Source of the DNA: Psammoneis japonica
Lineage: Eukaryota
Direction: 5' to 3'
Length of the DNA stretch: 46,679 nucleotides
Assembly (NCBI GenBank): GCA_008632985.1
Contig: QPGO01000159.1
Coordinates: 124,001-170,679 of the forward strand
Shown here: in pieces, positions 11,561 through 46,679 of the stretch
How positions within the stretch are numbered: position 1 is the stretch's first letter
How the letters are laid out: each line of letters opens with the position of its first letter
Position numbers and translations under genes: made by a program
The notes under the pieces: model-generated
Databases searched by the model: none
The model's input: the letters and a program-made list of their open reading frames with translations, nothing else
Told to the model about the DNA's origin: nothing

Positions 11561-12750
11561 GTGAAGCTTACTCAAACTTTTGACGATGGAACTAAACTGT
11601 CAAAGATGTGTCCCATTTTTACAGGAGAACACGGAGTTGAATTGCCATTGCATGTGGAGGACCGTTTTTGGAAGGTAGCAAGACAGTTGGGTTATGACAC
11701 CGGAACGGAACTCTTTGATGCCTTTGAGGATTGCTTACAAGGTGCTGCGGAGGCAAAATGGCAGTATATCACGGCAGGCATTCCACAGAATCAAAGGATG
11801 GTAGCTCGGTTCAATCAAGCTATCACAGACTGCTGTCTATGTTATGTGAAGCCGACAGCTCGTGATACGATGAAGATGCACTTGCCTACTTGCAAGAAAC
11901 CTTACTCCGCGGAATCTGCAACACACATTGATCATGGAAACTTTATTTCATTACGCTAACCGCTTGCCTGGAACTGTCCCTGAACTCACAGAGCAGGAAC
12001 AGAAAAATGTTATCTTCTACACTTTTTCCTTTGACGTGGCAGCAGTCCTACATTCGTGCGGGCAAGAATCTTGTTACAGATTCAATGGTGGATGTTCAAG
12101 CCTGCATGAGTATCGAATGGGTGTTTGCCAATGGTCAGGATAATAAGAAACGCAAGTCCAACAATGGCAATGGAGGGAACTCCAGCAACAAGAAGGGCAA
12201 CCGTGACAAGAAGGACAGTAAGGGTCAACCCAAGGCTGGTGATCTGTGTCCGGTCCCGTGGCATCACGGAAGACATACGTGGGGCCAGTGTTATGACAAT
12301 CCAAACAACCCTAACTATCATGGGCCTCAAAACCGCGGCATTCAAGGTGGAGGTTGTGGCGGTGGAGATCGAGGCAGAGGTCACTTCCAAGGAGGCCGTG
12401 GTCCTGGTCATGGTGGCGGTGGACGCTTTGGCGGTCATGGTAACCAAAACCAAGGAGGTCGCGGTACCTGTTATAATAATTACAACAACAACAACAACAA
12501 CAATGGGAATCAAAATAACAGTGGCAACCAAGGTGGTGGTGGCCAACATTATTACAATGACAACAACAATCGTGATGGCCAAGGTCAGGCCGACGGTTAT
12601 GCTGCTCAAGCAGATAATATGAATGACAACCAGGCTCAAGAAGCTCCTCGTGGTGATGTACACCATTTCGATATGATCGGACAAGGCCCTCCACATTGTC
12701 GAGGTGTGGTGAGGTTTCAGCCAGATGGGCAGTTTCCTCGGCAGTTCTGA
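11561..12750 (+). pseudogene. gag: Gypsy B gag (frameshifted)
   Basis: Overlapping ORFs 11561, 11928 and 12007. Zn-knuckle-like CPVPWHHGRHTWGQC and RGG/N-rich tail. Start approximate. Confidence 0.8.
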
Positions 12751-12990
12751 GACTCTGGAGCTGAATGCTCTTAAAGCTGAATGCTCCCAATTGCCTGCAT
12801 GTGAAGCATTTGTTGAAAATGATTGTATTATGCCTGAAAATTTACCTGAAAGTTTTGCTTTTGTTTGTTTTGAAAATCCTAACAAATTGTCGCCTGTTGA
12901 ATTTGAAGATGCTACAGAAAATTACATGAATGAAGAGGGGAACGTATTCAATCAAGATGTGCATTTGAATATAACATTCCTCTCCCCAAA

Positions 12991-16630: not shown

Positions 16631-16759
16631 GCCCACATAAAACAACAACAGTCATTGCCAATGGCACAATACAGTTAACGTGGAGACATTATTGACACTG
16701 TCAATGTCCGTCGAATAATTCCACTTAAGGAATAACTAATGTGCAATTAGGGAGGCCAA

Positions 16760-17126
16760 TGCAGTATGCGCTTGTTACACGCATATTTATAATTATGTGT
16801 TATTTATATGTCAATCGTACCACAGTCGTGGATGCGTATGAAGGACAGAACGATCACACAGAGTTGATCGGATGTCAAAAATTGCAAATACGAACGATTG
16901 ACGATGTTGACATCTTACGTGTCAATAGCAATCATATCCGGACAATCTGTTGTCATGATTATATTCTCCGAAAGGCCTTTTGTCTGTAGAAGCAGTACAG
17001 AAGCTTTAGACCATTGAGAACTTGTTCAGAGAAACCAAAAATCACAGAGTAAAATTTAATCTCACAATTTCCACTTTTCGTACTTTATTCTACTTTCGTT
17101 TATACTTGTTCTTCGAGCATAGTGCA
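16760..17126 (+). repeat. 3' LTR of Gypsy A2 copy 3
   Basis: Reverse complement of the 4675-5047 LTR; TGCA termini. Confidence 0.92.
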
Positions 17127-21648: not shown

Positions 21649-22029
21649 TGCACTATGCTCGAAGAACGAGTGTAAACGAAAGTAGAACGAAGTTCAAAAA
21701 GTGAAAATTATGAGAATTATTTCTACTCGATCATTTTGGGTTTCTCCGAACGGGTTCTCAATAGCCTAAACCTTTTGTACTGCTCCTACAGACAAAAGGC
21801 CTTTCGGAGAATACGATCGTGACAACAGATTGTCCGGATACGATTGATATTGACACATAAGATGTCAACATCATCGTACAGTCGCATTTGCGATTCTCGA
21901 CATCCGATCAACTCTGTGTGATTGATCTGTCCTTCGTACGAACCCACGATTGACGTACGATTGGAATATAAGTTTATTTAATATATTCATATACATATAT
22001 ATATAACGTACATAACAACGCACATTGCA
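21649..22029 (-). repeat. Gypsy A1 3' LTR (381 bp)
   Basis: Direct repeat of 33417-33795. Confidence 0.96.
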
Positions 22030-22055
22030 TTCGCCTCCCTAATTGCACATCAGAG

Positions 22056-25014: not shown

Positions 25015-25926
25015 TCATTCCTCGGAATCGCTGCGTGTCAATTTTTCAAACTGATAATTCTCCTCGTCAAGGGTGTCAGAGTCACAGTCTTTGCTCTTGC
25101 GCTTCTCATTGTTGTTCGAAGAACTCGCTTTGAGTATTTTTTGAACTGCTTGGACCGCCATAGCATTCAACTCTTCTTTGCGAGCGGCATTATCTTTATC
25201 GCAACGAGACCACGTGCGATTGCCATTTGAACGGCGCCATTTTGGATCGGGTTCATAGTTCCCATGGCGTTCTTTCGCAAGTCTTTTAATCGACCAGCAC
25301 TTGTCTGTGTTATGAGTGGACTTTTCGCATGAAATGCACCACTTATCGGACTGAGATTGTTCGGCACCATGTTGGTGACCATTTTTGGAACCACGTTTGG
25401 AACCATTCTTGGCTTTCGATCCAGCACTGTTGCTGGGATCAGCCTTGGCATGAATGCCGTCAAATATGTCCTCCGCGACCTCTAGGTGCTCCAAAAACTC
25501 AACCAACTCATCATAGGTATGTTTCAAAATTTCGAAACCCTGGACGGTCGACTGACGCTGCCACTTTCGAGGTGCAAGGTTGAAGAGGATGTCCTTGAGC
25601 TCGTCCTCCTCAATCTTCTGATCCTTTCCAAAGGGAGGATAGAACTTGAGATCTTCGTTGACTTCCTGGACCCAGGCAGCAATCTCGAGAACTTTCATCG
25701 ACTCGGGCTTCTTGAGATCGCGACGCAAATAGCGTTTCTGAACCGAAAGTGCGTTCTTGGGAAACACATTCTTCGTGAGATGCTGCAGGCATTTCTCGAA
25801 GCTTCCTTCCGTAGATTTGTCTTCAATGTTCGTCGCCGCATTCTCAAAAGCACGTAGAGCGTCTCCTTGCAGCAACATGCGCATGAGACGGAACTTATCG
25901 ACTTGCTTGCTGACATTCTGGCCCAC

Positions 25927-26096
25927 TGTCTTGTGAAGATATTGTGAGCTTTAGAGGCTTACTACTTCTACGGTCTATGATCTATCCACGTCAGTCACTT
26001 CAGAGGTATCTTCGACATCATCCTACTGAGTCAGCACGAGCTATTCTCTACGAGGTACAGTCTGTCCGTCTGTACGTCGTACGGCTGACCGTGACA
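25927..26096 (-). repeat. Copia-II 3' LTR
   Basis: Direct repeat of 32963-33132. Confidence 0.96.
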
Positions 26097-26321
26097 CTCC
26101 CTCGTGTCGACGAGGGCTCTGTTAAGTAATGTAAGAGAAGCTAAGCCGATGAAGCAATATCTTTACTAAGCCTCTAGAGCATCCCTAGAAAGTGTCTAGG
26201 GTGTGTCTAGGGTTTGTCTCTCCCTCGTGCTTCGAGGAGAAGCGAAATAATGGTGCCATTTGCACAAGTCAAAAATGCTGTTTTTGTCGTATTCTGCAGC
26301 CGCGTTGAACTGCTTACAGGG

Positions 26322-29300
26322 TTACCAACCCATTATCATGCACCTTAAACCTTCGAACTTGGTTCGTCCAAGAGGTTTAGTGAGCAAATCTGCCCAATTG
26401 TAGTTGGTGTCAACTTTTACTACCTTCACAGAACCACGTTTTATGTGGAAACGAAAATGCATCCATTTGATGCTAATGTGCTTGGTTCTAGCTCTGTATT
26501 GCTCGTCAGATGTGGCTAGGACAATGCAGCCGGCATTGTCTTCATGCACGGTGGACGGGGAAAGCTTGTGTGGTGACACACGAGTTTCCAGAGAACCTGA
26601 TTCAATGTGTGAATCTGCTAGTTCAAAATCCATGGTTTTGGACAATTCTTCTAGTATAGTTCTCATAGGTAACAGCTCGCGTAAGCACTGTGATAGTGCA
26701 ATAAGTTCAGCCTCAGTTGAGGAGAGAGCTATTGATGATGTATCCCGATCGGGAGAGATGCGATTCGTGGAGATGGGCAAAATTTCTGTGCCACATTCCC
26801 GCGAAGTCACTATCAACATGTGCATCCACGGAGAATTTCCCTTTTGGCCGGAGCTTAATTCCGTCTGTTGAAGTTGCCAACAGGTAACGTCCAATGTATT
26901 TAACGGCGCGTTCGTGTAATGCCTTTGGGCAATTCGAAAATCTTGCGCACATATGTACTGCCATTGCAATATCTGGGCGAGTCATTTGAGCTAAGAAACT
27001 CATCTTTCCGATGACTGATCGGTACTACAAATTGCAAAACAATTGCGCGATACACGTGCCCGAAGGTCGAATACTGTATCGTTGCCCGAAGCAACATTCT
27101 TCCTTCGCGCAGATGTCCATTCTACATAGTATATGGTATTGAAAATCTCATTGTAGTCGCATGAGTCGTTGCAGTAATTTCATCAATGACCTCTGTGGTA
27201 CTGTGCTACGTGATCTACACAAATCGGACATTCTCGAATGCTGGTATATTTTCTACGGTCTCTACGTGCGCGAAGCTCGAATTTCGCGCCCGAAGCAACA
27301 ATCACCCTTCGGGCACGTGTATCGCGCAATTGTTCAGCAATTCGTAGTAGTTCCACGTTTCTTGACGCTCCTGACCGTTCGAATCAGGATGCAACATTTG
27401 TGCTGCTGGGGTAGCCTTTGTATGGGGCTTATTCTGTAATGGTTCATTGTTGGTTGACCGCAGGCCAAGGTCTATCAATATGGAATCAATAAGGCCAGTC
27501 TAGGTCATTGATATCTCGCCGTTTGCGGTTTGAGTGATATCAACACCTAAGAAAGCGGATACGTCGCCTTCGTCGGTAAGTTGGAACTCGTCTTGTTTGA
27601 GCTCCTGAATGAGCGTTGTGATAATATCATTTGTTGGGGCGAATACGAGGCAATCATCTGTGTATAAGCAGATGAGACAATCATTTCTGATGAATAGACA
27701 TGGGTCTATTTTTGATTTCTTGAATCCTCGGCGTTCTAGGCCTTTGGATAGTTTCTGAAACCAGTTTCGCGCTGCAGTTTTCGTGCCATATAAGTTCTTT
27801 TTGAGCTTGCATACCATATCTGGTATGATATTCCCATTTTCGTCTTTGACCTCCCAGCCTTCTGGGAGTCTCATGTAAACTGGTTCTTCCAGTTCTGCCT
27901 GTGTAAATGCTTGCACATAGTCCACTTGTCTGCTTTTCAGACCAGTAATTGCCGCTAGACACAGTATGAGTCTTACTGTACTCCACGCGACGACGGGGGC
28001 GAATGTGTCCCAATAATCAATACCGTGTTGTTGTTTTGATCCGTCGACGCATATTCTTGCTTTGTATTTTGATAGCTCACCATTTGGTTTTCTTTTTCTT
28101 TTGTAGGACCATATCACGTTCAGTAGGCGGTGGTCTTTTGGAACTTCGGAACGTGGTATATATTCCCATACGTCCATATCAACAAGACCCTGTATTTCAG
28201 GTACTTGTGCTTTTTCGAATTCGGCGCGGTCTGGCGCTTTCTTCATCTGACCTTGGGTCAGGTTATCTGTATTTCCGAGCGCCGCTGCTTCAAATGCTAG
28301 TGGGCTGGATTCGTTCCAAATTCCTTCGTCAAGGAGTATATCATTATCTACAGAACCCATGAGTGCCATCAGGTGGGCTAGTTCTTCATATAGTTCTGCC
28401 GCTACTTCCTGATGGTACAGAGGTATAGTTGTATATGTGGTTGCGTCAGGTAAGTCTGTCGGGTTCGAGTTGTTTTGTACGGTTGTACATGTTGCCTCGT
28501 CGTCTAATCCTTTTCGACGTTTGTATTCTTGAAATTGATGCCGAGCGTGGTCAGCTTCCACATTGAGGCTATTGAGGGCTTCTTGTGTTATCATAGAAGT
28601 TGTAGCATCCTCTGATCCTGCTACAATTGGGCCGGGGGTTTTTGTGTTATCAATGAGTGATGGTGTCGCATTATCGACCGCTGGCGGGCGGTGTGATAAT
28701 GAGCCGGTCCCCTCTGCATTCTCCGATGTAGAACCTGCCGCCACAGGTAGCACAGCCTCGGAGGCAGGGGCTTGTGCTGATTCTGCTGGTGTTGTCGCAT
28801 TTGCTAGCGCAGCTGCTGCGTGGGTCGGTGTCGTGTCCGAGGCACCAGCAGCTGGCAGAATCTCTGCTGATATATTACCAGTATCTGGTTTTTCTTCGCC
28901 GTTGCGGGTACGTTTGCTCCCTCGTGATTTGTGATTCTTTTTCTGCGCCTGTTTGTACGCTTGAGGGTCGATGCCGTGTTCACGGAGCAAGTCGTCCTTA
29001 GTCCAGATATTCTTTTCAAAATAGTATCGATTATGATCGAAGTACTCATCGTGGTGAGTCCAAGTATTACTATAGTCATTGAATAGTTTTTCAAGAGCTG
29101 CCTCTAGTGCGTCAGTGGACGTGTTTCCGGGCGCTACTGTTGTAAAGTTTTCGTCAAAAGTGACGTGAAATTGTGGTGAGACGTGTTTGGTTATGGGGTC
29201 CCATACCAAGTAGACATTGCTGGCATGGTCCAGCGAATGTCCCACGTACACTCCTTGTCGTGACCGTTCGGCCCATCTTCCGATGTGAGTCCCGTCTTGG

Positions 29301-31030
29301 ACACTTTTGTCAGCGATATAGACGGGACATCCTAGACGGGACATCCCACACGCGAAAATCATCCATTTGGAAGGGCGGTTTCTCGTCGGTGAATAGTTCC
29401 CAGGGGTTTTTCTGTTTGCCTTTTCTGATGCACACATTATGAAAGTTGACAGCTTGTCTAATGGCGTATGGCCATAATTCGGTAGTTACTACATCAGACC
29501 AGAGGGACTGAGCGTGTAACAGGTACGTGCGCGCCATCGAGGTGACAACGCCTATGTGCCGTTCGGAGATGCCGTTTTGCCAGTGTGCTCCTACTCCACA
29601 ATAGGAGTTCGGTTGTTTGTTTTCAACGCAGTTTCTATGAACTCTGCAGCGGCGAATATGCCGTTATCGGCATGAATGTGCTCGATTTTGATGTCACATT
29701 TAGCTGCGAATCTCTCGAGCTTGGTTTTGCCGTTCAAAGTCTCTTTTCCTCCAGTAGACTCTTGCATGTGTGGATAGATAAATCTAGAAAAATGATCAAT
29801 CCATAGGGTACAGTGTTTGTACCTGCGAGTGGTTGGTTTGCCACGAGTGGTAGGAAGTAGACCTGGATGGCTCGCGTCGAGTTGGTCCGCCGACACACCT
29901 CGACCTGGAGCATCGTCGTGGCGTTCATCAATTCGATGACCACGTTGCTCAGCTTTGCGCTTTGCTTTAGCATATGCACAAGCTTTGCAGACCGGGGCTT
30001 CGCATTTTTCAAAGCGTTTCGGCACCATGCCGATTTTGGCCCATTCTCGGATTTGTTCGAATCCAATGTGGCCCATGCGATGATGTAGTTTTAACATATC
30101 GCGTTGAATGGGAAGTAGATTGTCTTCTATACCTCCCTCGTGAACTGGTAAGGCTTGTTGAGGCTGGGTAGGCCGGGCCTTTTTGCCGTTCTTATTTTTG
30201 GTTTCATTTTGCTTGTTAGCTTGATTCGGTCTGACCTTTGTGTCGGCCGCCGCCTTTTGCTTTCGTGTTGTGACAGCAAAAGCCGGATACGAAGCCGAAT
30301 ATGCTTTAATATTGGTACGTGATGGTAAAGTGCCATCAGCTCTTACATCAGAGCAAAATGCTTGGCAGTTACCGAAGCCTGGTGCAGTGGTAAGAATCGG
30401 TAGATTTGATTCATGATGACATCGTACTGTCTTGCGATGCTGCCCATAAATCATTGTCATAGAACTGCCACGTATAAAGAACCCATCAGCATCCTGATTG
30501 GGACTTGTGGCTGCCACTTGCTGTGGGCAAAGTAGTCTGACCGGGCAGGCATGGGGACGTATAACACGTTTTCTATATCGATGGTGAAGTTGACACCGGC
30601 GTCGTCCATGAAGGAGCATCTCACCGTGCCAACGCCTTCTATGGCGAGGCCTGAAGCGATACCCTTCAAGTTCAAGTTCTGAACTGGTCTTATATACCCT
30701 ATAAAATCATTCTCATTGTTTGTGATGGTGATAGATGCACCGGAATCGATCACCAAGTGAATTTCATCCGATGTCAGGGTAGGTACCTCGTCTGTGAGGT
30801 ATGCAGCATGTTCTGCTAAAGTGTTTAGTAACTCCTTGTTTTCTTCAGGAGTTCTAGAGTCAATAGTTTCGTATACTTTGACTAGTTGTGGCACATCACG
30901 TTTATCAATGAATGTAGACGTGGAGCGGGGTTTCGCTTGCACGGGGCTACCACGGATGAAATCGTCCGCGGTTCTCGAGAGCTATCTCAAATGCATAAGC
31001 ATTATCAATAATCTCCCCTACTAAACCATG
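26322..31030 (-). pseudogene. pol: Copia-II pol, frameshifted and interrupted by MITE-2
   Basis: VIDSGAS; HHRMGH...CKAC, WIDHFS, ADNG, QNGISER; KYKARICVDG, DYVQAF, LYGTK, LYTDD; VDSDFAG, SSTEAE, EDNAG, WADLLTKPL. Start approximate. Confidence 0.93.
27025..27347. mobile_element. MITE-2 (323 bp, TA TSD)
   Basis: ~42-bp TIRs CTAC(A/G)AATTGC..AACAATTGCGCGATACACGTGCCCGAAGG. TA at 27023-24 and 27348-49. Removal restores the Copia motif TWNYRSVIGKMSFL. Confidence 0.94.
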
Positions 31031-31150
31031 CCGTTGCTGGTGTAGTTTTAGCACAGATGGCGCTAGTTTCATACTTTGCTTTTAGTTTGACCGTTCCAGG
31101 AAAGCACTTGATTAAAACCGGATCTTAAGTATGTGGTGAATTAGGAGCAT

Positions 31151-32930
31151 CTAATTACCGTCTCCCCTCTGTTGCTCAAGAGCAGCAACAGATTTGGAGA
31201 AAGAAAAATTGGCAGTGAGTTTCTGCAACTTATCAATATCAGCCTGAATCTTAGACTGAGCCTTTTGGCGCTTGTGGTCGTAGGCGCTCCTTTTCTGTGC
31301 GCCGCCGCCCTGGTTGGATGTGCGCTTACCGCTCACTGTTGCTGTTTGCAGCGATGTACTCATCATGAGTGTCAGTACTGTGGCGTGTAGAATACATCTT
31401 ACAAGTGTCACACCAATGCCAGGTCTTGTCACCCCATTGTTTTTCCTGAGACTTGTTCTCGGGTTCGAGATACAAGAATGGCGGGGATCCACGACGAGGT
31501 ACACGAGGGCGATCACGCCCATGATGTCCACCACGACCACCGCGACCTGGATTGCTGCGCCTGTTATAACGGCCGTGACGTTCGAATCGTGTCTGCTGGT
31601 GCAGGGTGCTCTGTAAGGCGGTCGCGACCTTGGTCATTTGCTGCGCGAATCCGACTGTCTCTTTCTGACCCGTGATTAGGGCCATGAGTTGAGTGTCGTT
31701 GTCTGAGGGCTTATCCCAGATCTGCTGGGCCACATAAGCGTTCTTGAGGCTGATCGCCTTGTTAAACAGGGTCTCGATTGTCCACGTGACCTGTGTCTTA
31801 CGCATCCATTCTGTCTCATTCTTGGCCATCTCGTCCGCGAAGGGTTTGCAAGGGGCAGTCTTGAATTCTTCAAATGCCTTTTCTACGAGGGTATACTCGA
31901 GCGTACTGTCGCACTGAGTATGCAGGCGTAAGCACTGGCGGAACTTGCTCATGTACTTATCGACATTGCTGTCGCAGTCATTGACCAGAGAGATCTTCAA
32001 CATCTGGGACTGGATGTTGTTGATGTACATCTTAGGCGATGGAAAGAGCTTCTGGTAAGCCAAGAAGAAGTACGTGGAGCCGTCGCGATGGCATGCTTTG
32101 TTCATGTCTGGGGCAATATCCTGACGTAGCTCTTTGTCGAATGACGCGACAAGCAGTTGCTTTAACGCACGTTGAGCGAAGTGCTCGGATGTCTGGTCAT
32201 TGCAGAGCTTACGGACGTTGTCTGGTTCTTCAAGTACCCAGCACTCTAGGGCAAAGGACTCGAAGATCACAAGGGACAGTTGGGGAAAATCTTTAGTTAA
32301 AGACTTGTTAGTGTCACCCACTAGTTTGATTTTGTCCCATGCTGGAGATGTCTCAAGACGTTCCTTGAGACAAAACAAAAAGTCAAAGAATGACTCTGGG
32401 TCTTTAGTGAGTTTGTCCTCTAGCAGTTCAGCTAGCGTCTGGACACGCTTGTCAGCGTACGCACCGGCAGCCTGTTCATTTATCTTCGCGGCAAGGCAGT
32501 CGCGCGCACGCTTAGATAGGTGCTTCCTGGTACGAGTTTTGCGTGGAGTTCCCATGTCGGATGTTTTGGATGAGACACTTTCATCATCAGAAATGTCCAT
32601 TTTGGACACGTCTTTGTCTGACTCGATAGAGTCGTCGACGTCATCAGTTTTACACGCATCAACGGCACGTTCGGTATCCAGGTTTGGTGGATTGACGTCA
32701 TCACGCGACTTCGTCGTCGTGTCGTCGGCTGTTTTGCCAATTGCCTTTTCGGTTTTCCCACCGCGTTTGCGGGGTATGCGCTCTTTGCTTGTCGACTCCT
32801 TGCCACCAGTTGGCGAGGGCGTCGCGACATTGCGCTTCTTCTTCGGTTCAGAAGAGTTCTTGTCCTTTTTGGGCGTGTCAGCCTTGTTGGACTTGGATGG
32901 GGCCATGGTGAGCAGTGAGTGTTGTTGCAA
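31151..32930 (-). CDS. gag: Copia-II gag (534-aa ORF; tail probably continues by a frameshift to 31151)
   Basis: First ORF after the PBS. Basic/acidic N-terminus, helical core, KTWHWCDTC...H...H knuckle. Confidence 0.8.
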
Positions 32931-32962
32931 AAATTGCTGAGGTAACGAAGGGCTTCACAACC

Positions 32963-33132
32963 TGTCTTGTGAAGATATTGTGAGCTTTAGAGGCTTACTA
33001 CTTCTACGGTCTATGATCTATCCACGTCAGTCACTTCAGAGGTATCTTCGACATCATCCTACTGAGTCAGCACGAGCTATTCTCTACGAGGTACAGTCTG
33101 TCCGTCTGTACGTCGTATGGCTGACCCTGACA
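32963..33132 (-). repeat. Copia-II 5' LTR
   Basis: Direct repeat of 25927-26096, adjacent to the PBS. Confidence 0.96.
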
Positions 33133-33416
33133 CCCACTAGAAGTTGATCGTAGCTCTTGAGGAACTCGATGTATTTGGGGACACCCTGTTTCTTGTAGTG
33201 CTCGACATTGATGGTGTAGGTACGACTATCCTTCTTCTCGGGATGAAAACATTGCTCCATCTTGAGATGCTGACTCGGTTTGAGGCTCTTCGGCTCGGAA
33301 TTCGATTCCAACGGTTGCGGAACGATTCTCTCCTGCCGTAACGAAGTTTTGGCATTGGTTACATGAGGTGAAAGCTTCATCTTGAACTTGTTACCTTCTG
33401 TGGTGTGTATACACAA

Positions 33417-33795
33417 TGCACTATGCTCGAAGAACAAGTGTAAACGAAAGTAGAACAAAGTTCAAAAAGTGAAAATTATGAGAATTATTTCTACGCAATC
33501 ATTTTGGGTTTCTCCGAACGGGTTCTCAATAGCCTAAACCTTTTGCACTGCTCCTACAGACAAAAGGCCTTTCCGAGAATACGATCGTGACAACAGATTG
33601 TCCGGATACGATTGACATTGACACATAAGATGTCAACATCATCGTACAGTCGCATTTGCGATTCTCGACATCCGATCAACTCTGTGTGATTGATCTGTCC
33701 TTCGTACGAACCCACGATTGACGTACGATTGGAATATAAGTTTATTTAATATATAGATATACATATATATAACGTACATAACAACGCATATTGCA
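33417..33795 (-). repeat. Gypsy A1 5' LTR
   Basis: Direct repeat of 21649-22029, followed by the palindrome at 33404-33415. Confidence 0.96.
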
Positions 33796-33799
33796 ACGT

Positions 33800-33826
33800 A
33801 TTGAACCACTCCGCTATGAATTCATA
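33800..33826 (-). promoter_or_regulatory. 5' half of a tRNA-like sequence with Pol III A box
   Basis: TAGCGGAGTGG at 33816-33806 fits TRGCNNARYGG. It lies 37 nt upstream of the B box once Gypsy A1 is removed. Confidence 0.72.
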
Positions 33827-33827
33827 A

Positions 33828-33934
33828 TGCAGCATGCATGCAGACAAAAGGACATTTTGTCACGACCTTTGTGACATTTAAACTGTAACACGTCGCCGTG
33901 ACACATTAACTCTTGTGAGTAACTGGACATTGCA
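33828..33934 (-). repeat. TRIM 5' LTR (107 bp)
   Basis: Direct repeat of 21334-21441. Confidence 0.92.
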
Positions 33935-33938
33935 GCAT

Positions 33939-35846
33939 GTCGTTCTCACTGGTGATGACACATGGGATCCATCTGTCCTTGACCACCAGTTCACCGACGA
34001 TGAAAAGTGGTATGATGCCATGTCTGTCCTCCAAGACGACCCGACTACCAACCTCTTTGATGAGTTCGGCAACTATTGCCACTGCCATGTCATCAAAAAA
34101 GCCATGCTTACAGACTCCGTCCTTCATGATCACCTGCTCCCGACGTCTGATTTCTTCTACGAATGCCATGACCACGAAATCAATCCAAAGGCTCCCAACT
34201 TTGAGTCTCTCTCCACCCTTGTTTTGGCTTTCTCCCAAAGGACACTGTTCACCACACTTTTGATTGCATGACGCAGTGCGCCCGCATGCCAGCCAGCACG
34301 CACCTGAAAAAGGCATGCAATTTGCTCAACCCGGCTCTCAATGTCCACCAACGTAAAGAACCTGTTGCTGCTGACACGGTGCACTCCGACACCCCTGCCA
34401 TTGACTCCAGTTGCACCAGCGCCCAGCTCTTTGTCGGCACAGAATCTCTCGTCACTGACGTGTATGGCACCAAAACTGACAAAGAATTTGTCAACACCCT
34501 CGAAGACAACATTCGTAATCGTGGTGCCCGGTCCAAGCTCATCAGCGACTGTGCTCAAGTTGAGATCAGCAACAAGGTTCTTGGCATCCTTTGTGCCCTC
34601 TTCATCTCTAGTTGGCAAAGCGAGCCTGACCAACAGCATCAGAGTTTTGCTGAACGCCGCCACCAAACTGTGAAGACCATGGCCAACACCATCATGGATC
34701 ACTTCAGGTCCCTGGCTTACACCTGGCAACTCGCCCTGATGTGCGTGTGCTTCATGCTCAACCACACGGCGTCCGTCAAGCTCCACTGGCATACCCCCAC
34801 TGAGGTGCTGTCCGGCTCTACTCCCGACATCAGGCCGCTCCTCCGCTTTCAATGTAGGGGAACCCGTGTGCTGTCACCTGGATGATTCCAACTGGCTGTC
34901 CAAATCCTGTGAATTATGTGGTCACCTCATTGGCATTGCCGAACACGTGGGTCACCAAATGACATTCAAGATTCTTTCTGATGACACTCAGAAGATTCTC
35001 TGCTGTTCCAATGTGCATTTCACTCATGATCCGTCTGCTCCAAACCTGCGTCTTGATCCTCCTGACAAGCAATCTGCTGAACCTGTCATTAAATGCCACC
35101 ACAACTCCGAGGATTTGCCAGATTCACCAGATGGGGAGGCGATCAGGATGCCCAAAATGCCGGTCTTTGACCCCAAGGACATCATCGGACGCACCTTCCT
35201 CATGAAGCCACAAGAGGATGGACAACGCCACAGAGCCCGCATCATCAAAGCCGTTGAGGACCATGACTGGAAAATTGGAGACAATCTCCCAAACTAGTCA
35301 AGTTCATTTGCTCTGTCAACAATGATGAATACGAGGAAGTCCTAGCATGCAAAGACACAATGCACCACATTGAGCAAGAAGACGAGGACACCACCCTCTG
35401 GAAGTTCCGACGCATCGCATCGCATGAAGGACCATTGTGACCCCATGATCCCTCTTGGAAAGGCTCAAGCTACAATGTCATGCTTGAATGGGAGAATGGG
35501 GAGATCACGTCCGAACCCCTTGCCATCATTGCCAAGGATGATCCCGTCACCTGTGTCATCTACGCACGTGAGCACGGCCTCCTTGAAACCAAAGAATGGA
35601 GACGTTTTTGCAAGATAGCCCTGCTTCAGAAGAAGCTATTCAGCATGGCCAACCAAGCCAAGTTACGCTCCTTTCACACTGCGCCACGACACAAGCACGG
35701 GTGTGAAGTGCCACGGGACTGCAAGCATGCCCTGGCCCTTGATGAGTGCAGCAACGGCAACCGCAAGTGGGGAGATGCAACAGACCTCGAGATGACTCAG
35801 CTTGATGAGTACGAGGTCTTCCACGACTGCAGACACCACAAGGATT
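33939..35846 (+). pseudogene. pol: Copia-I pol continuation (integrase, chromo-like segment, start of RT)
   Basis: PALNV.QRKEPVAADTV, EFVNTLEDNI..RGA..KLISD, MLNHTA, GIAEHVGH.MTFKIL, YNVMLEWENGEITSEPL, W.DA.DLEM.QLDEYEVF. Confidence 0.88.
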
Positions 35847-36430
35847 ATAAGTTCCGTCTCATGCACATGCTGTTGCAAGGAGATGCTCTACGTGCTTTTG
35901 AGAATGGAGCAACAAGCATTGAAGACGAATCTGAAAAAGGAAGCTTTGAGAAATGCCTGCAGCACCTTACTCTACATGTGTTTCCCAAGAACACACTTCA
36001 GATTCAGAAACGTTATTTGCGTTGCGATCTCAAGAAGCCAGAGTCCATGAAAGTACGCGAAATTGCTGCTTGGGTCCAGGAAGTCAACGAAGACCTCAAG
36101 TTCTATCCTCCCTTTGAGGAGGGTCAGAAGATCAAGGAGGATGAGCTCAAGGACATCCTCTGTAATCTTGCACCTCGAAAGTGGCAGCGTCAGTCGACCG
36201 TCCAAGGTTTCGAAATTTTGAAACATGCCTGCGACGAGTTGGTTGAGTTTCTGGAGCGCCTAGAGGTCGCAGAGGACATGTTTGACAGTGTTCATGTCAA
36301 GGCTGATCCCAGCAGCAGTGCTGGATCAAAAGCCAAGAATGGCTCCAAACGTGGTTCCAAAAATGGTCACCAACATGGTGCCGAAAATTCTCAGTTGGAC
36401 AAGTGGTGCATTCCATGCACAAAATAAATT

Positions 36431-37752
36431 CAGAACAAAACCAAAATTCTATGTTTAAAGTGCTGCTGCGCTTCTGCCCTGCAACTCCGGCAACAAGCTA
36501 ACCCACACCCCCAGCACACCAACAGTGCGGCAGGAATGTATTGCGATTAGCCAAGATGGGCATCACCAACAAATGATGATGCCCACCGGGAACAGTTGGG
36601 AGTGGTGTTGTAGACAGCAACAGCAAATTGATTTAGCACCTTCAAAGCACTAGAAACCACAGCAATAGAACAGCTCTTTGCTTCTGACTGGATCTGATCA
36701 TTCCACTGAAGCAAGCCATGTTGGAACATTCCAAAGTGAGAAGGGATCTGAAACAGAGCAAACACCGTGTGTTTCACAAACAGGGACCAAAACATCACCA
36801 ACCACCGAGTTGGTCTCAAAATCAAACTTCTGGCAGCAGCAACAACAAAAAGGAGTTTCATCACATAGAGCAAAGAACTTAAAAAGGCATTGAGGAAAGG
36901 GGGGGGTCGTTGGAGCTTGGCAGGCACAGATGGAGAGCCGTCGGATGATAGGAAAATAGGCCATCAGAAAATATTTTCGTGACACGTAGAACTTGCACTG
37001 AGTCTTGCGTAGAAACTTGGCAGGAAGCATCAGCAAACAGGCGAAGAGCCAAATCAAGCCAAGTTGATCTCGAATTCACACTTCTGGAAGCAGCAAAGAT
37101 GGAAGGGTATTTGCTGCATAAAGCAGAGAACTTAAAAGGACAGCAGGCAGAGGGGGGGTCTTTGGAGCTTGGCAGGTATGGATAGAGAGCAGTCGAGAGA
37201 TTGGGAGATCGGCCATTTAAAAATATTTCCTTGACACGTAGAACTTGTATGGAAACTTGTGTAGACTTGTCGGCACGCGGAAGGTTGGCCAACACACACT
37301 GAATTGGTCTCTTCTTCAAACTTCTGAAAGGAACAATGACAGGAAGATGTTCACCACATGACATAGGAAACTTGAATAGACAATAGAGAGAAGGGGGGTC
37401 GTTGATACTTGAGAGGTATGGAGAGAGAGCAATCGGTAGTTTGATGAGTCGTCCGTCTGAAATGACTTGCAGAATGCGTAGAATTTGTACTGAGACCTGT
37501 GTAGAAACTTTGCACGCGAGAACAAAAAATGCCGAGCAGAACGTCGAGCAATTAAGCCAAGAGAGCTGGATGCAATTCGTTTTCCACTGCATGAGATTGT
37601 CAATGATCATAGAATGATGGCATGTCGATAAGGAACACGTCTGAACAGGCAGGTAAGAACCGTCATTACACCATCAGAAAAAGGCAACATCTGTGCCAGA
37701 GCTTACGTAGAAAACATGTAGAGGGTGTGGCCGTGAAACAAAGGCAGAATTG
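36431..37752. other. Unassigned 1.3-kb insert containing three diverged ~240-252-bp tandem units
   Basis: Markers GGGGGTC.TTG.A.CTTG..AGG at ~36901, 37153 and 37394, and CGTAGAA.TTG.A at ~36985, 37237 and 37477. Minus-strand ORF 36879-37610 repeats LPSSxDPP. Confidence 0.6.
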
Positions 37753-40137
37753 TAAGAAAAATAAATTGTTCTGAATGGGCAGCTCCAACCTTTATTCAAC
37801 CAAAGAAAAATGGTCGAGTCTGGTTCTTATCCAACTTTCGTGAGCTGAATAAGAGGATAATACGTACGCCGTTTCCTCTGCCCAATGTTCAGGATATGCT
37901 GCAGAAGCTTGAAGGTTTCATGTATGCAACATCCCTTGATTTGAATATGGGACACTATCACATCGAATTAACGCCGCATGCACGTCGTCCATGCACGATT
38001 GTCATGCCTTGGGGCAAACATGAGTGCTGTAGACTCCCCATGGGAATCTGTGGAGCTCCAGATATTTTCCAAGAGCACATGAGTGAGCTCATGGCAGGTC
38101 TGGAGTTCGTCAGGACTTACATTGACGACATCCTGTGCCTTACAAAAGGTGATTTCCAAGACCACCTCAAGAAGCTTGAGATGGTGTTTTTATGCCTTGA
38201 ACAAGCCGGATTGAAGGTCAATGCCAAAAAGTCTTTTTTTGCTAAACCCGAAGTAGACTATCTGGGCTTTCACATCACCCGTAATGGCATCAGTCCCATT
38301 CCAAAAAAAGTAGAAGCGATTCAAGCGATCGCAATCCCTAAAACTTGTAAAGAATTGTGACGCTTTATCGGTCTGATCAACTGCTGTCGAGACATGTGGC
38401 CTCGACGATCTCATGTTCTAGCTCCTTTAGCCAAACTTACTTTTCAGACCAAGTAAAGTGGCAATGGACCGAAACAGAACAAAAAGCAAGCCTTCAAAAA
38501 TGTGAAGCGCATCATCTCTAAAGATGTGCTGTTGTCATACCCACATTTCAACATGCCCTTTGAGACACATGCTGATGCAAGTAATTCTCAATTGGGGGCG
38601 GTTATCACGCAGAATAACCGGACCAATTGCCCTGCCTTTTACAGCTGTAAGCTGAATGGAGCGCAGACGCATTGTGCTACAATGGAAAAAGAACTATTGT
38701 CCACAGTGGAGACATTAAAAGAGTTCCGAAATATGCTGTTTGGCCAACAGATAAACACACACACGGATCACAAAAATCTCACACATGAACATTTCACAAT
38801 GGACAGAGTCATGCATCGGCGTCTAATGACAGAAGAATGCAGTCCCAAAATGACACATCTTGAGGGCAAGGCGAATGTTGTCGCAGATGCGATTAGCTGA
38901 CTTGCTGTTAAAAAAAGGAACCCATGGAAAACCTCAGCACAGAAGAGTCAGCTGAAAAGGTCCTGCCAAAATCCTACAACAATGTCTTTCCGTTAAATTA
39001 CAAAGTTCTTGACACTGAACAAAATCAGGATAAAGACATTCTCTCCAACTTGTCTAACAAGACATTTCATATGAAGACTTTTCATGGAGGTGAGCGAGAC
39101 CGGTTGCTCACATGTCATAAGGATAAAATCGTCGTTCCAAAGACGTTACAAAAGGAAGTGATAGATTGGTGCCATGCGCACCTTCTTCACCCTGGCATAA
39201 ACCAAACAGAAGAAACAATCTAACAACACTTATGGTGGTCTACCTTACATGAAGACATAAGAAAATACGTGTCGACATGTGAGACATGCCAGAAATTCAA
39301 AAAGAAACACAAGATGTACGGACATTTACCTCCTAAGTGCGCAGAATCTGTGCCACGGGAACAACTGTGTGTGGATCTTGTTGGACCATACAAGATACGT
39401 CGTAAGGGAAAGAAGAAACCCCCAGTCCTGAAGTGTGTTTAACAATGATTGATCCAGCAACCGGATGGTTTGAAGTTGTGGAAATTCCAAATAAGGAATC
39501 CATAACTGCAGCTGGACTATTAGAACGGACATGGTTAAGTAGATGTCCTTGGCCATCGTTGATCACTTATGATCGTGGAAGTGAGTTCATCGGACACCAA
39601 TTTAAAGACATGGTGCAAGATGATTATGGCATTAAAGTCAAGCCTATAACTACACAAAATCCACAAGCAAACGCAATTATTGAATGCGCACATCAAGTGC
39701 TGGGAAACATGATCCACACACTTGACTTGCAACATGCACCTCTGGACACTGAGGATCCTTTCGCTGGAACATTGTCAGCAGCAGCATTTGCAGTACGTTC
39801 AACATATCATGCCACTACGCAAGCTACACCTGGACAATTTGTCTTTAACAGAGACGTGACATTTAACTTCCAACACGTCGCAGACTGGAAATTTATCCAG
39901 CAGCGAAAACAAAAAATTATAAATAGAAATAACCCTCGAGAGAATACTCAACGTACTCCTTACACGTACAAAGTAGGAAAAAAGACACTGCTCGAGAAAG
40001 ACTCGCAGAAACTAGAACAGCCCTATGTTGGACCGTATGTAATAACAACGGTGCACACTAATGGCACAGTACAGATCAAACGCGGTGACGTCCTTGACAC
40101 TGTCAATGTCCATTGAATTATTCCATTTAACGACTGA
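37753..40137 (+). pseudogene. pol: Gypsy A3 pol (RT-RNaseH-INT)
   Basis: SEWAAPTF, YIDD, ADAS, CVDLVGP, YDRGSEF, GPY; stops and frameshifts. Confidence 0.93.
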
Positions 40138-40163
40138 CTCTAATGTGCAATTAGGGAGGCGAA

Positions 40164-40538
40164 TGATGCGTTGTTATGTACATTATATATGCACATATAA
40201 AGACATTAAATAAATTTGTGTTTCAATCGTACGTCAATCGTGGGTTCGTACAAAGGACAGATCAATCACACAGAATTGATCGGATGTCGAAAATGGCAAA
40301 TACGATTGTACGATGATGTTGACATCTTATGTGTCAATGTCAATCGTATCCGGACAATCTGTTGTCACGATCTTATTCTCCGAAAGGCCTCTTGTCTGCA
40401 GGAACAGTGCAAATGCTTTAGGCCATTGAGAACCCGTTCGGAGAAACCCAAAATGATTGAGTAGAAATAATTCTCATAATTTTCACTTTTCATACTTGAT
40501 TCTACTTTCATTTATACTCGTTCTTCGAGCATGGTGCA
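40164..40538 (+). repeat. Gypsy A3 3' LTR
   Basis: Reverse complement of the A1 LTR, with a small deletion at its start. Confidence 0.93.
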
Positions 40539-41230: not shown

Positions 41231-42662
41231 TCACATCGATTGTTCTTGAACGTCGTAAGTGGGAACAGCGCCCTTTGGAATAATGTCGTATCCTGTTACA
41301 TCAGGAACACCTGTCCCTTCCACACTCATGTCGGTTTCGGTGCTGTAACACCACTGTGTCTGATTAGGATTCAAAAAGTCAAGCATGCCATTGAATGAAT
41401 CGGTGATGCCTTCAACACAGCACACAAATTGGGTTGCACAGTCGCGTCGGATTCGTTCTTTCACGACATCGTTACTGAAGCCACCTTTGTGCTTGGTCTC
41501 CAGGTTCGTAATAACGTCCTTGATCCATCCATGGATTACGTCTGGACGTAACTCGAAAAAAGTTACTTGGCTGATAAGCCACAGGCTTCTGTGATCGGAT
41601 GGCCAGCCAGCATTGAGGCTGAAGAGCATTGCCAGCTTGAATCCATCGTATGTCATTCCATTACCATCAATGGCCAATGAGTACCGGACGAGATTGTCCA
41701 TGTTGCGATTCCGCTGACATGATTCAAAAGGATCCACGTTCAAATCCATAAGTCCTCCAACTTCGCCGTGGGTGTTAACCCCATATAACGGTAAACCACA
41801 GGTCCGTGACAAGACAAGTCGGTCAATGTCACTGCGGTCTAGTGCAAGCTTGAGCTCATTGCCTCGCGATCGCCACAGGTTGGATCGCCTTGTGTTAAGA
41901 GCTTGCGGTCTACCGGCTAAGCATTGCCAGTGGTCTCGAGTGGTGTGTGCCGTCTGGCTCTTGTTCCTGATCTCGAGCAGTCTCTGTTCCATGTCATCAT
42001 GGAGAGAGAACATTGGTGTTGTAGCGGACATGTGGTGCCGCATGGGAGGCGACCACTTCTTGTATAGTTCAAAGACTGACTCCATGAGACCAAAACGTTG
42101 TCTCCATAGTCTCATGAACACCTCCTTGAATTGCTGACGGTGAGTCACGAATCGCTCTTCCCAGCAAATCATGTGATGGTCTAGCGTGTCCATCGCTAAG
42201 ACCGGCTCTTCGGCAGGTAGATCGCCCATCTACCATTTCTACGTTTGCGTTATGACTCGGTGCAAACGCTCTTGTCCAAAGGGAGAGTTGGTCCCTTGCT
42301 CGTTTGTATGCTCTTGCACCGCGTTCTTGGAGAACTTCCTCCTTTCTTCCGTTCCATAAATCCACAGGAAGACTATCGGCACGTAGGTCGCCCGTCCTGA
42401 CAAACTCATCCTTGATGCTTGCATCAATTGCGCAGGCGCCTGCCACCTCTAAAAAATAGTTGTTCGGCCAACGATTCAACACTGTGCCGGTTGTGTCGTG
42501 AGTGACATGTTCTTGTGGCCTTTTCTCATTGTACAAGTGCCGCGTGGCCCTTTCTTGGTGCATCACTTGGTTGATAAGGTCTCCGACACGTTCGTTCGGT
42601 GCCGCTTCTAACACGGCGCTCAGGATGGCTTGATCAATGTCTACCTCCTCGTCGTCATTCAT
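41231..42662 (-). CDS. Extra ORF downstream of Copia-III pol (197-aa and 332-aa overlapping ORFs, probably one ~480-aa frameshifted gene); function unknown
   Basis: Same sense as pol. Starts 150 bp after the pol stop and ends at the PPT. Globular-looking composition with no recognisable motif. Confidence 0.6.
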
Positions 42663-44822
42663 TGTCGATCGTTGTTGTTGTGCGAAATATGATTCGCTCC
42701 GGGGAAGATCGCACGATCGTCATTCTCCGGGTGCCAGGGATCTTTCACCCACACGCGTCAGAATTCTCGTCTGACGTCACAAACAGGAATCTTACCTGTT
42801 GCCGTTAGGACTTAACGTCCCATAACAGCTCGTTTGAATTTTAAAAACTTTTCACCTTGCAATGGCTTGGTCATGAAATCTCCAATCATCGCGTCGGTAG
42901 GACAGTGCTCGATAGTTAGGTTGCCCTTCTTGACTTGGTCGCACACGAAGAAGTGTCGTATGTTCAGCGCTCTGGAATGCTTGCCTGCGCTCCGACGACC
43001 GTTCATCTCTAATAGCGTTGCACTTTTGTTGTCTTGGCATAGGATGTTCTTGTCGATGGGATATCCTTGGTGCTCCATAAACAGCTTCGTCCATAGGATC
43101 ATGGTCATTGCGTCGTCGACACCCACTAGTTCGGCTTCTGCACTGCTTCGGGTGTTCAATTTCTGTCTTCGTGACATAGCTTGTATCGCTCCATCGCCCA
43201 TTGTCATCACTGCTCTGGTGTGGCTCTTGAAATCTGGATGCACCGCGAAGGATGCGTCGACACACCACTTTATTACTCGGAGATCTTTAGCGCTCAGGGT
43301 AGCCACCTCATTACGCGTTCGATTCAGATGCTTGAGGTGCCGGATGAGCTTCGCCCAGTCTTTGTTGGTGGGCTCTCTTGTCCGTGTGCATAATGCTGAC
43401 ATCGTCGGATGGACGTCCATGCGTCCGCGTTTGGATGCGAATGGTCCTTTCGCTACCCACGCATGGAATGTCTGTGCTTTCTCTGGTGGTAATTTTGTTC
43501 CACCCACCTCAAATAGGTTCTCCCCTGCTGGTGTCACAGCAAAATCTGTGCTCTTGATCTTTTCTGGAAATTTGTCAATCATAGATCCGACATACTTTCT
43601 CATGTCTACCATCACCTTCCCTTTGTCAGTGAAGTCCAGGATCATGCCGAGGTAGTCATGTTTCGGACCCCTCGTCGCCACGACTTCGCCGTGACTCCCG
43701 TACTTTCTGTTTAACCAGTTGAGGAACTTGTCGTTAACTTTTGGGTTGACGTGGCTTGACAGTAAGTCATCCATGTGAAATCGTACTGTGTGCTGCTTTC
43801 CGTTGACAATTCGGTTAGCAATGCACGGGTCATATGGGTTGAACTTGAACCCCACCCTTTCCAAGTCTTTACGGAACTTCTTGTACCACAGTAATGCGGC
43901 AACAAGCATGCCGTAGATTGCTCTGACGACTTGGACGTAAAGGACTCTCTTTCCTTTTTCTAGGACTACGTGCGGTCCATACAAGTTCGGATCAATGTTT
44001 ACCAGCATGTCCACAAGTGAACCTGTAATCTTCATCATGATTCGTTCCTCGCCTTCCTTGGGTTCTGGAACTTCTGTTTGAATGAATGCGTTGGGGATAT
44101 CAGTGCTCATAACATCGCGTCCCTCGTCTGCATCGATTGCCGCAGTCATCAGGATTCCTTCCAATGATGCTGTCGGACTGGCTGATTCGTCTTTGTCTAG
44201 CCATTCTCTGGATGGTTTTCCGTTATATACCATCCGCCCTTTGATGCGACCATCGCGTTTCTCTGTAAGGAACATCAGGGCTATCATCGCCTTCTTCCTC
44301 TCGGTCGGAGTCATGCTTTTCACTGACACCGGTTGGAAGCAAACTCGGTCGTGTAGTTGTTTCATTTCTTTCTGTGAGGCGTCATGTCCTCGCTGTCCAA
44401 ATAGTTTGAGACCTTTATGCAGCAGATGTTGCTGACCGAACGACATCTCCTTTCCTGCTCGTGCTCTGTCATTATATTTGCACATGAAAAAGGCAGTGAC
44501 CAATCCTTCTTCATAGTCATAGTCTATGTCGTCTTGTGGGTTAGGACTCCCGTTGGTCAGGATATTGTGGCAGCACTCGAGCTTTCTTAGCTCTTGTTCT
44601 TCTTCTTGGGTTCTCGCCACTCCTGCAAAGCGGACTTTCTTTCTCGTGTCACTTGTCTTTGCTTTTGTATTGTAGCTACGTCCTGATCTTGTGGTTCGGC
44701 TTGTTGTTTCTGCTGATTCTCCTGGTTGTTTCATCTCTTCTTGGTATTGATTTGGACTGGATCCATCTTCTGCGAGGATCACATTGGTTTCTTCGTGTTC
44801 TTCGTCAGATTCATATTCGTCA

Positions 44823-44922
44823 TCGTTATTGTTGTCGCTGTCGTTGTCGTTGTCGCTGTTGCTGTCGCTGTCGTTGTCGCTGTCGCTGTTGCTGTCGCTG
44901 TCACTGTCGCTGTCGCTGTCAT
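44823..44922 (-). repeat. Coding hexamer microsatellite (GACAGC/GACAAC) encoding a DS/DN acidic linker
   Basis: Visible (TGTCGC/TGTCGT)n run on the plus strand. Confidence 0.9.
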
Positions 44923-45915
44923 CCACTCCTGCAGTCCAATCAGTATCACGAAGATTGTCACCATATTTGCCGGTGAACTTGAAGTCCTTGATGCCTTGAC
45001 GAGAGGCCATGCGTTCAACCGCCCGAACGTGGGTATCGGTTAAAGGGACTGCAGTGCATTTGTAGGGGTTAAGAAGTTTCCCTGTGTGGAGATTCACAGT
45101 GTAGTGTCCCCCTTTGTCCGTGTCGTAACGGGGGCGCAGGCAGACACTGTCGATCCCACGTGTTTCCATTGTATTCGTGGGGGAATTCTCGACGTGTGAA
45201 AGAACAAATTCACCGAAAGTGAAAGCAAAATGTTTGGTGTAGTCGAGATTCCTGCGTTGTAGGATAGTATGTGGACTGCAAACGTCCGAGATGCCCTCTT
45301 TTTTCGGGTGCATATTTGACATCATAGTGTTCTTGATTACCGCGTGCTCACACATGAGCTTAGGCATTGCCTTATATGGCATGTGTTGAACGGTAGCTCT
45401 TGTCCATTCCTTAATGGTTTGAATGCTGCGTTCGACTTCAGGTGCGTGATCCTTGGTGTTGGTGCTGATAAGTTCAATGTCCATGCCGTCCGCAACGTCG
45501 GAAAGCATCTCTTTAAATTCAGGATCACACTCGATGAAGTCAATCTTGAAGGAAGCCTTGTTGCATTGGCGTAGAATAGTGTCCAGTGCGTCATACACGT
45601 GAACGTGCTTCTTGGACTTTAAACACACGCTCGCTCGACATTTAATCGTCTTGTCAATAGAATGGAGTAGCTTGACTCCACAAACCTCCATGATGTCAAT
45701 GCATAGAGTAATGCCGTCCTTCTGTCTCTCATAAAGCTCTGGCGGCAAGGAAATAATGTCGTTCCTCTCATGGGAACGGTGGGCGCGTTTGGATTTTCCT
45801 TTCACTGCGTCCACAGGTGGACCCCAAATGGCCACCATACGATCGGCGTCTTCGGGAATAATGTTGAGATTCTTGACTTGGTTCGATCGTAGGAATCGCT
45901 TGTAATCCCGCAAAC

Positions 45916-46361
45916 TGGGGATACCAGCCTCGTAGTAGAATCGGAGAGCCTCTTTTGCCCTCGCGATCTCGCGTTTTGTGTGCCCTTTTGAGTTTTCTTT
46001 GGCAGTCGGAATCACTGTCCCAGCAACACTACCTGGCCCGCGCTTCTTGCGCTTCGATTGCTTGGATCCTGTCACATTCATGTTTACATGTTGCTCTGCT
46101 TCTTGGAGCTCCTTCACGTAACCTAGGAATCCATTACTTGGGGATGCCAGCCTCGTAGTAGAATCGGAGAGCCTCTTTTGCCCTCGCGATCTCGCGTTTT
46201 GTATGCCCTTTTGAGTTTTCTTTGGCAGTCGGAATCACTGTCCCAGCAACACTACCTGGCCCGCGCTTCTTGCGCTTCGATTGCTTGGATCCTGTCATGT
46301 TCATGTTTACATGTTGCTCTGCTTCTTGGAGCTCCTTCACGTAACCTGGGAATCCATTACT
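45916..46361. repeat. 223-bp tandem duplication inside Copia-III pol
   Basis: 45916-46138 and 46139-46361 differ at 5 positions. Confidence 0.96.
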
Positions 46362-46679
46362 CGGTGTAAACGCGTATAGGCCAATGCTGTTCGCCTTGAA
46401 CACCGCGACTTGCTTCCCCGACTTCTTATCCAGTAAGCGGAATTCATCGGCTACTCGCGTGTCATAGGTCATGTCGTACTTTTTCTTGACGTCTCGTAAA
46501 CTGAGGATGTTTGCAATTGCATTCTTTGTTCCGAGTTTCATGTCACCCCATCCTGGCATGGTACAGTCTTTATCCAGCGTGTCCACTCCTGTGTTCGTTG
46601 ATAGGTCGATCTTGACCTTTGCTGGTCTGATGTTGTGTACGAGATTCCCACTCGCTGCCATGCTAAGGGTGGATCCATT

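Follow-up and report, generated by a model that had tools for sequence, protein, structure and literature searches.

Loss of TpA dinucleotides by A:T>G:C transitions in LTR retrotransposons of the diatom Psammoneis japonica

Context-specific decay of repeated DNA is known for CpG, where it follows methylation, and for CpA, where it is brought about by repeat-induced point mutation (RIP). RIP, which acts in a sexual phase of Neurospora and other fungi and depends on sequence duplication, introduces context-specific transitions on both strands of chromosomal repeats and cripples transposons, turning CpA into TpA and thereby enriching the latter. Decay at 5-methylcytosine converts CpG, a self-complementary pyrimidine-purine dinucleotide, into TG/CA. 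The window analysed here, a stretch of 46,679 nucleotides from Psammoneis japonica (assembly GCA_008632985.1, contig QPGO01000159.1, positions 124,001 to 170,679), consists almost wholly of long terminal repeat (LTR) retrotransposons and carries on its minus strand, at 42812-46117, an open frame of 1101 codons. This frame belongs to a dead Ty1/copia element of the diatom type, of which it appears to be the integrase-reverse transcriptase (RT)-RNase H portion. From the frame, and from the other LTR elements of the window, TpA was lost by single TA>TG or TA>CA transitions, with an A:T>G:C rate at TpA that is 6-12 times that in other contexts and, per site, about equal to that of CpG>TpG/CpA decay. 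We read TpA loss as the trace of decay in silenced repeats rather than as proof of a defence system (probability roughly 0.55).

Pfam analysis of the 1101-codon frame revealed an RVT_2 domain (PF07727) at residues 619-850 (E 4.4e-10, 40 bits, cut-off 31.6), while no rve domain was found. A protein search with the frame gave 461 proteins at E<=1e-10 among 8000 scored, and 120 of these were used as relatives. Between 97 and 99% of the frame aligned to Copia polyproteins of 1100-1900 residues with 40-65% identity, one of them named Ty1/Copia by its source, and the nearest Atlas clusters were RVT_2 clusters in which the commonest recorded taxon was Bacillariophyta; one related protein is labelled as coming from an uncultured bacterium. 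The 5' side of the element is broken by a tandem duplication of 223 bp (45916-46138 and 46139-46361, the halves being 98% identical), which shifts the polyprotein frame and so sets the start of the 1101-codon frame. An upstream frame of the same element (46134-46679, minus strand) leaves the window at its end, the element itself running past that point, and, owing to the duplication, repeats the peptide VKELQEAEQHVNMN from the start of the 1101-codon frame. At about 44800-44960 (codons ~395-440) an acidic low-complexity linker of Asp, Ser and Asn separates the presumed integrase part from the RT part; one environmental metagenome locus (L005) has a linker-like stretch, with a match of 84-93% over 46-92 bases.

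For the frame, the count of substitutions took in the first and second codon positions of alignment columns with 80% or more conservation across the 120 relatives, and covered the chances for a change as well as the events. A:T>G:C changes were found at 12 of 61 TpA chances and at 10 of 282 in other contexts (odds ratio 6.7, Fisher p=5.6e-5). Through TA>TG/CA the frame lost codons for conserved Tyr, Ile, Thr and Leu residues, and among the Tyr columns that meet the 80% threshold 7 of 19 were changed. The first-pass annotation had described the frame as open but crippled, listing altered residues, and each of its examples fits the consensus of 23 relatives, which reads WYVDAS, MKYLN, ILYQDNKSAI, IRYFF, IEYCPT, SSTEAE, KGLF, QQYLL and RxYN; in the window Y is replaced by C or H, T by A, L by P and I by T. 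Such examples alone carry little weight, since any transition turns a Tyr codon into one for His or Cys.

Six copies of one LTR family, situated at 1877-2183, 4646-5037, 21649-22029 and 33388-33795 (plus strand) and at 16660-17126 and 40060-40538 (minus strand), allowed the same count without recourse to proteins. The copies at 21649 and 33388 are the two LTRs of an element termed Gypsy A and are 97.1% identical; that at 40060-40538 belongs to a second element, Gypsy B. A change was polarised when it was private to one copy and at least three other copies were unanimous. On this basis A:T>G:C changes numbered 10/160 at TA, as compared to 2/245 at AA, 0/160 at CA and 1/196 at GA (3/601 for all non-TA sites), with 6 transversions. 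The comparison of TpA with ApA, CpA and GpA, proposed as a check in the first-pass annotation, thus came out in its favour, and the TpA context extends beyond the open frame into the LTRs as had been claimed. The changes are visible by eye in the alignment, as in ATATAA>ACACAA (the Gypsy B copy has ACACAA where the other copies have ATATAA), TATGTATATAAC>TATGCGTGTAAC and, in the copy at 16660-17126, TAATATATAAT>TAACACATAAT. In a BLAST pile-up of the whole window A:T>G:C changes were seen at 17/172 TA sites versus 11/1091 other sites with at least two homologues, and at 4/98 versus 1/572 with at least three.

A direct comparison of Gypsy A with Gypsy B (21649-24185 against 40538-37753) gave 69 TA<>TG/CA, 37 CA<>CG, 31 AA<>AG and 13 GA<>GG differences together with 37 transversions, and Gypsy A retains TA at 56 of the 69. 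Adjacent double differences were dominated by CA|TG (11, 2, 4, 1 and 1 in five pairs), as is expected when a single ancestral TA, or a single ancestral CG, is struck twice independently. GC-biased gene conversion was considered and rejected, because its effect would extend to A:T>G:C changes in every context and would not be confined to TpA. A second asymmetry was noted between the two Gypsy elements at ApG/CpT, where A:T in B faced G:C in A 24 times and the reverse was seen 7 times.

The same pattern is present in a related Copia family from an environmental metagenome. In a star-like cluster of four loci about 89% identical (L042/L047/L049/L055), TA was changed at 20/265 sites versus 29/2220 in other contexts; pooled with the LTR family the A:T>G:C counts were 30/425 and 32/2821 (odds ratio 6.6, p=1e-11). 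Very young pairs of metagenome loci (L010/L011, L006/L030, L056/L057 and L066/L067) contributed 4 TA-type changes among about 36 differences, which are too few. Changes in the RIP direction, CA>TA, numbered 0/167 in the LTR family, 2/78 in the frame and 13/715 in the metagenome cluster. The polarity is therefore the reverse of RIP, as the first-pass annotation had held: 12/61 for TA>TG/CA against 2/78 for CA/TG>TA in the frame, and 10/160 against 0/167 in the LTR family. In composition, too, RIP enriches TpA, whereas here TpA is destroyed, the whole-window observed/expected (O/E) ratios being 0.55 for TA, 1.32 for CA, 1.30 for TG and 0.81 for CG. Methyl-CpG decay is also present, with CG>TG/CA at 5/112 versus 2/356 in the LTR family, 6/47 versus 7/235 in the frame and 44/321 versus 32/1920 in the metagenome cluster. 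The two kinds of decay are alike in the form of the dinucleotide and its products, in rate per site, in the elements struck and in tempo, but in the one C:G changes and in the other A:T; methyl-CpG decay accompanies the TpA changes and does not explain them.

The direction of change was examined further in other copies from the same organism. A DNA run holding 60% of the 31-mers sampled from the frame supplied 513 contigs at least 80% alike, and these were aligned to 42000-46679. They differed from the window at 618 places (521 transitions and 97 transversions), the best-supported 40 of which comprised 21 TA-type, 13 CG-type and 4 other transitions and 2 transversions. At nine sites inside the frame the window has TA and nearly all contigs have CA or TG, from which parsimony first suggested the RIP direction. 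The polarity TA>TG/CA follows from the protein outgroup, because it is the TA state which encodes the conserved residues. At 43653, 43981 and 44026 the TA of the window encodes a conserved Tyr (109/120), Tyr (117/120) and Thr (102/120), the other copies being derived; the reverse holds at 45141 and 45145, where the derived state is that of the window and Tyr (109/119) and Ile (113/119) survive in two contigs. Among the 40 best-supported places the TA state corresponded to the conserved residue at five of six nonsynonymous TA-type sites, the sixth being weak (I 19/109).

These data bear on the possibility that no mutation process is involved, and that the pattern arose from assembly or base-calling error, from misalignment in TA-rich runs, or from Cys and His being native to the family. 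The derived letters of the window at 45141 and 45145 do not appear in the contigs, and 6 of the 26 singletons in the LTR family, 5 of the 10 TA-type ones among them, lie in a single TA-rich run (columns 347-365). Cys/His are nevertheless not native, because two contigs of the same organism keep the ancestral Tyr and Ile and because Tyr is retained in the window at sites that read Cys/His in other copies; this settles a check which had been put forward in the earlier annotation. The protein-based count is independent of any DNA alignment of repeat copies, the same excess is found in an independent metagenome assembly, and the identical method gave no excess in a second metagenome cluster (L001/L002/L019/L045, 75-86% pairwise identity), in which the counts were 16/300 for TA and 89/2100 elsewhere and which doubles as a control on the counting. 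An artefact is very improbable.

At the moment of integration an insertion has identical LTRs at its two ends. Those of Gypsy A now differ at 11 sites (5 TA-type, 3 CG-type, 3 transversions). Between the LTRs at 1877 and 4735 there were likewise 11 differences, 5 of them TA-type, and the LTRs of a further element, Copia-I, had 4, none TA-type. The halves of the 223-bp duplication, whose origin is wholly chromosomal, differ at five bases, which form three TA<>TG/CA changes and one CA|TG double, and nowhere else. Pooling LTR pairs of single insertions with the duplication gave 15 single TA-type changes and 2 CA|TG doubles, or 19 of 38 differences, while TA-class sites make up 176.5 of 1253. Since LTR pairs and duplication halves differ by TA-type changes, the changes arise in chromosomal DNA after insertion. 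On the sense strand of the elements 49 A>G and 54 T>C events were counted (p=0.69). Both the strand symmetry and the chromosomal origin asserted in the first-pass annotation are borne out by these figures.

Another conceivable origin is before integration, through A-to-I editing of element RNA or RT errors which are then copied into new insertions. ADAR hyperediting of retroelements and ADAT/TadA-type editing share with the present pattern a net A>G with T/U before the A, the latter enzymes preferring U at that position, and some derived states are indeed common to nearly all other copies, as if a mutated master had been copied. Such editing acts on RNA, on one strand and prior to integration, whereas the changes described here affect both strands equally and arise post-insertion; the 49:54 split excludes RNA editing and RT error as the main source, and this origin is most improbable. 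A preference of the TadA kind for TAC is not apparent, because all four TAN trinucleotides are raised in the pooled data (TAA 7/118, TAC 6/117, TAG 7/92 and TAT 10/98, the highest). A mild preference for A-T-A-T was observed, with a 5' A in 43/104 events (p=0.003) and a 3' T in 45/104 (p=0.04). ApT, taken as a control, was not significantly raised (11/646 versus 21/2175 pooled, p=0.14).

The changes arise one site at a time in double-stranded chromosomal copies, without strand bias, and build up as the copies age. Of the TA sites, a fraction of 0.15-0.19 differed in three LTR pairs about 96-97% identical and one of 0.42-0.58 in older pairs; across the same age range the fraction of differing CG sites rose from 0.11-0.25 to 0.36-0.50 and transversions per site from 0.003-0.011 to 0.020-0.054. 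The smallest pairs were exceptions with respect to TA, as the Copia-I LTRs differ at 0/14 TA sites and the tandem duplication at 3/9 (0.33), the latter with 0/12 CG sites changed and no transversions. Strand-coordinated clusters, such as an APOBEC-like deaminase acting on adenine would leave, were not found: neighbouring events were of the same type in 14/24 cases at distances up to 10 bp, 25/39 at 11-50 bp and 25/44 beyond, none of these being significant. Mutated TA sites were no closer to CpG-decay events than retained ones (Mann-Whitney p 0.25-0.88); this test and that for clustering are both of low power. On these results a processive deaminase and patch repair triggered by CpG deamination were rejected as leading mechanisms. 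Because TA loss tracks CpG loss and age, and strand-coordinated clusters are lacking, the process appears as gradual single-site decay and not as RIP-like bursts. The word hypermutation, insofar as it was meant to denote bursts, finds no support here.

This result also affects the original proposal of a "reverse RIP", in which a DNA adenine deaminase or a thymine-modifying enzyme would be targeted to repeats or heterochromatin as a defence or mutator system. Points in its favour are a per-site rate that equals methyl-CpG decay and would be high if the lesion were spontaneous, the confinement of differences between the halves of the 223-bp duplication to TA sites, hits on both strands and the mild A-T-A-T preference. 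RIP-like bursts are nonetheless absent, TA loss scales with transversions and CpG loss, there are no strand-coordinated runs of the processive-deaminase kind, and no candidate gene for an enzyme making the TpA change was found in the window. Taken together, such a system is unlikely.

A possibility that deserves more weight, though on balance it is not the probable one, is a neutral mutation bias throughout the genome, in which the polymerase or repair of the host makes TpA hypermutable everywhere and repeats show it since they are unselected. Low TpA alone is not unusual: 80 related metagenome Copia loci, many of which match the query over long stretches, are themselves poor in TpA (median TA O/E 0.63, range 0.47-0.95), and the lack of clustering, of strand bias and of any link to nearby CpG events is what a background process would give. 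However, the metagenome cluster L001/L002/L019/L045 has no TA excess, and TA loss runs parallel to CpG loss, a process linked in diatoms to methylated transposable elements (TEs). Mutation-accumulation lines of Phaeodactylum tricornutum offer a published comparison, covered here in part: by our own count from Table S2, 16 A:T>G:C transitions occurred among about 146 nuclear substitutions; CG, CC and TG, and not TA, are named in the covered text as mutable dinucleotides, and AA, CA and GA are given as low-mutability contexts, TA not being among them (PMC6604790). The absence of TA from that low-mutability group agrees with a general bias, but the spectrum differs from that of the window, where 15-19 of 38 differences are TA-type; as the species are different this argument is weak.

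Several observations weigh against reading TpA loss as a decay signature of silenced repeats. The term "repeat-associated" would rest on a comparison with another species, the window holding only TE-derived sequence and no single-copy host sequence. The divergent metagenome cluster used as control lacks the excess. In the whole-window pile-up CA>TA reached 14/319 with at least two homologues, a value attributed to mispolarised three-copy cases because it drops to 1/147 with at least three. The contigs do not show the derived letters of the window at 45141 and 45145, although, as rare variants are lost from contigs, this decides nothing in either direction. Finally, nearly all other copies share the derived state at 43653, 43981 and 44026, and this could reflect common ancestry rather than independent hits.

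The cause of the TpA loss may be a lesion or mispairing event that is slow and confined to the TpA step. Candidate lesions would be hypoxanthine formed from adenine, or a thymine altered by modification or oxidation so as to pair with G. Left unrepaired in silent, methylated repeats, a lesion of this type would let TA and CG erode in parallel into TG/CA, and a by-product would be the loss of TAA and TAG stops and hence long open frames. A TadA-like deamination of adenine, or a modified base at TpA, is at present conjecture. It is tentative, and on the whole doubtful, that in two or more diatom hosts the TpA of silenced repeats is marked or attacked by an enzyme-made base change which is mutagenic in the manner of 5-methylcytosine and forms a mirror image of RIP; thymine hydroxylation of the 5-hydroxymethyluracil/base J kind, adenine modification or a DNA adenine deaminase would be candidates for producing the mark. 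No TpA modification in diatoms was found in the part of the literature on 5-hydroxymethyluracil and 6-methyladenine that was covered. Likewise, no description of TpA>TpG/CpA decay in diatoms or in other repeats was found in the sources covered, some in part (among them PMC6604790, PMC2806351 and PMC4504042), most subscription journals lying outside their scope.

Two further systems invite comparison. "WA" mutagenesis by polymerase eta is known from somatic hypermutation and non-canonical mismatch repair, and resembles the present case in causing A>G at TA where the DNA is also subject to cytosine deamination. It differs in that ApA is not raised here, its counts in the LTR family, the frame and the metagenome cluster (2/245, 5/93 and 10/812) being no higher than those of CpA or GpA, and in that there are neither same-strand patches nor clustering near CpG events. 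The bias of very-short-patch repair in E. coli depletes CTAG, and there, too, TA>CA arises as a side effect of C:G-biased repair of T:G in methylated DNA. That system is bacterial and bound to a pentanucleotide, and a eukaryotic analogue would yield TG>CG, which is not raised in the same three data sets (0/160, 4/88 and 8/731). A TpA-specific A:T>G:C decay as fast as that of methyl-CpG would thus be a third kind of context-specific repeat decay, opposite in direction to RIP. If tied to silenced DNA, it would point to a novel modification, or to a repair gap, at TpA in diatom heterochromatin.

The depletion of TA follows the apparent age of the elements. In those whose LTRs are about 97-98% identical CG is still near its expectation, the TA O/E being 0.75 (CG 0.98) in Copia-I (25926-33138, minus strand) and 0.69 (CG 0.96) in the internal region of Gypsy A (22030-25925, minus strand; RT and RNase H). 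Gypsy A spans 21649-33795, and the younger Copia-I is nested inside it. Gypsy B (35480-40059, plus strand), in the opposite orientation to Gypsy A, is the more decayed copy, with TA 0.51 and CG 0.68 over 35480-40538 including the LTR. The most degraded stretches reached TA 0.25-0.45, CG about 0.6 and TG up to 1.82; the lowest value was that of 33796-35479 (TA 0.25, TG 1.82, CA 1.37, CG 0.62). The unequal TG and CA in this old stretch hint at a strand asymmetry. Counted on both strands of the whole window, the observed numbers of TAA, TAG and TGA were 0.52, 0.48 and 1.30 times those expected, in agreement with the corollary, drawn in the first-pass annotation, that this kind of change leaves frames open. 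The depletion of TAA and TAG accounts for the long overlapping frames, including a 273-codon antisense frame inside the Copia element, and long overlapping open reading frames (ORFs) on both strands, such as 12007-12885 and 42834-43655, are likely by-products rather than genes. Degraded repeats which lose these stops (to about 0.5 of expectation) will therefore display long false ORFs on both strands, and LTR insertions in such genomes will be misdated unless TA and CG sites are excluded.

As to the remainder of the window, RT, RNase H, integrase or gag domains were identified by Pfam in 9 of 25 further ORFs. A pair of target site duplications, GCCTA/GCCCA, had been cited earlier as bearing the same signature; inspection of the Copia-I and Gypsy A boundaries, where the LTR ends are approximate, did not reveal it. 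Inside Gypsy B, at 36805-37610, there are tandem repeats of about 250 bp and a 243-codon minus-strand frame without a Pfam match. Gypsy-like fragments with shared LTRs occupy 1-5037 in the order internal-LTR-internal-LTR, the internal parts (199-1372 and 3559-4736) being 86% identical and each followed by an LTR, the first of which is disrupted by an inverted repeat of 116 bp (1371-1486 / 1763-1878). A tandem array of units of about 179 bp lies at 7949-9275, its seven copies showing 60-88% identity to the reference unit.

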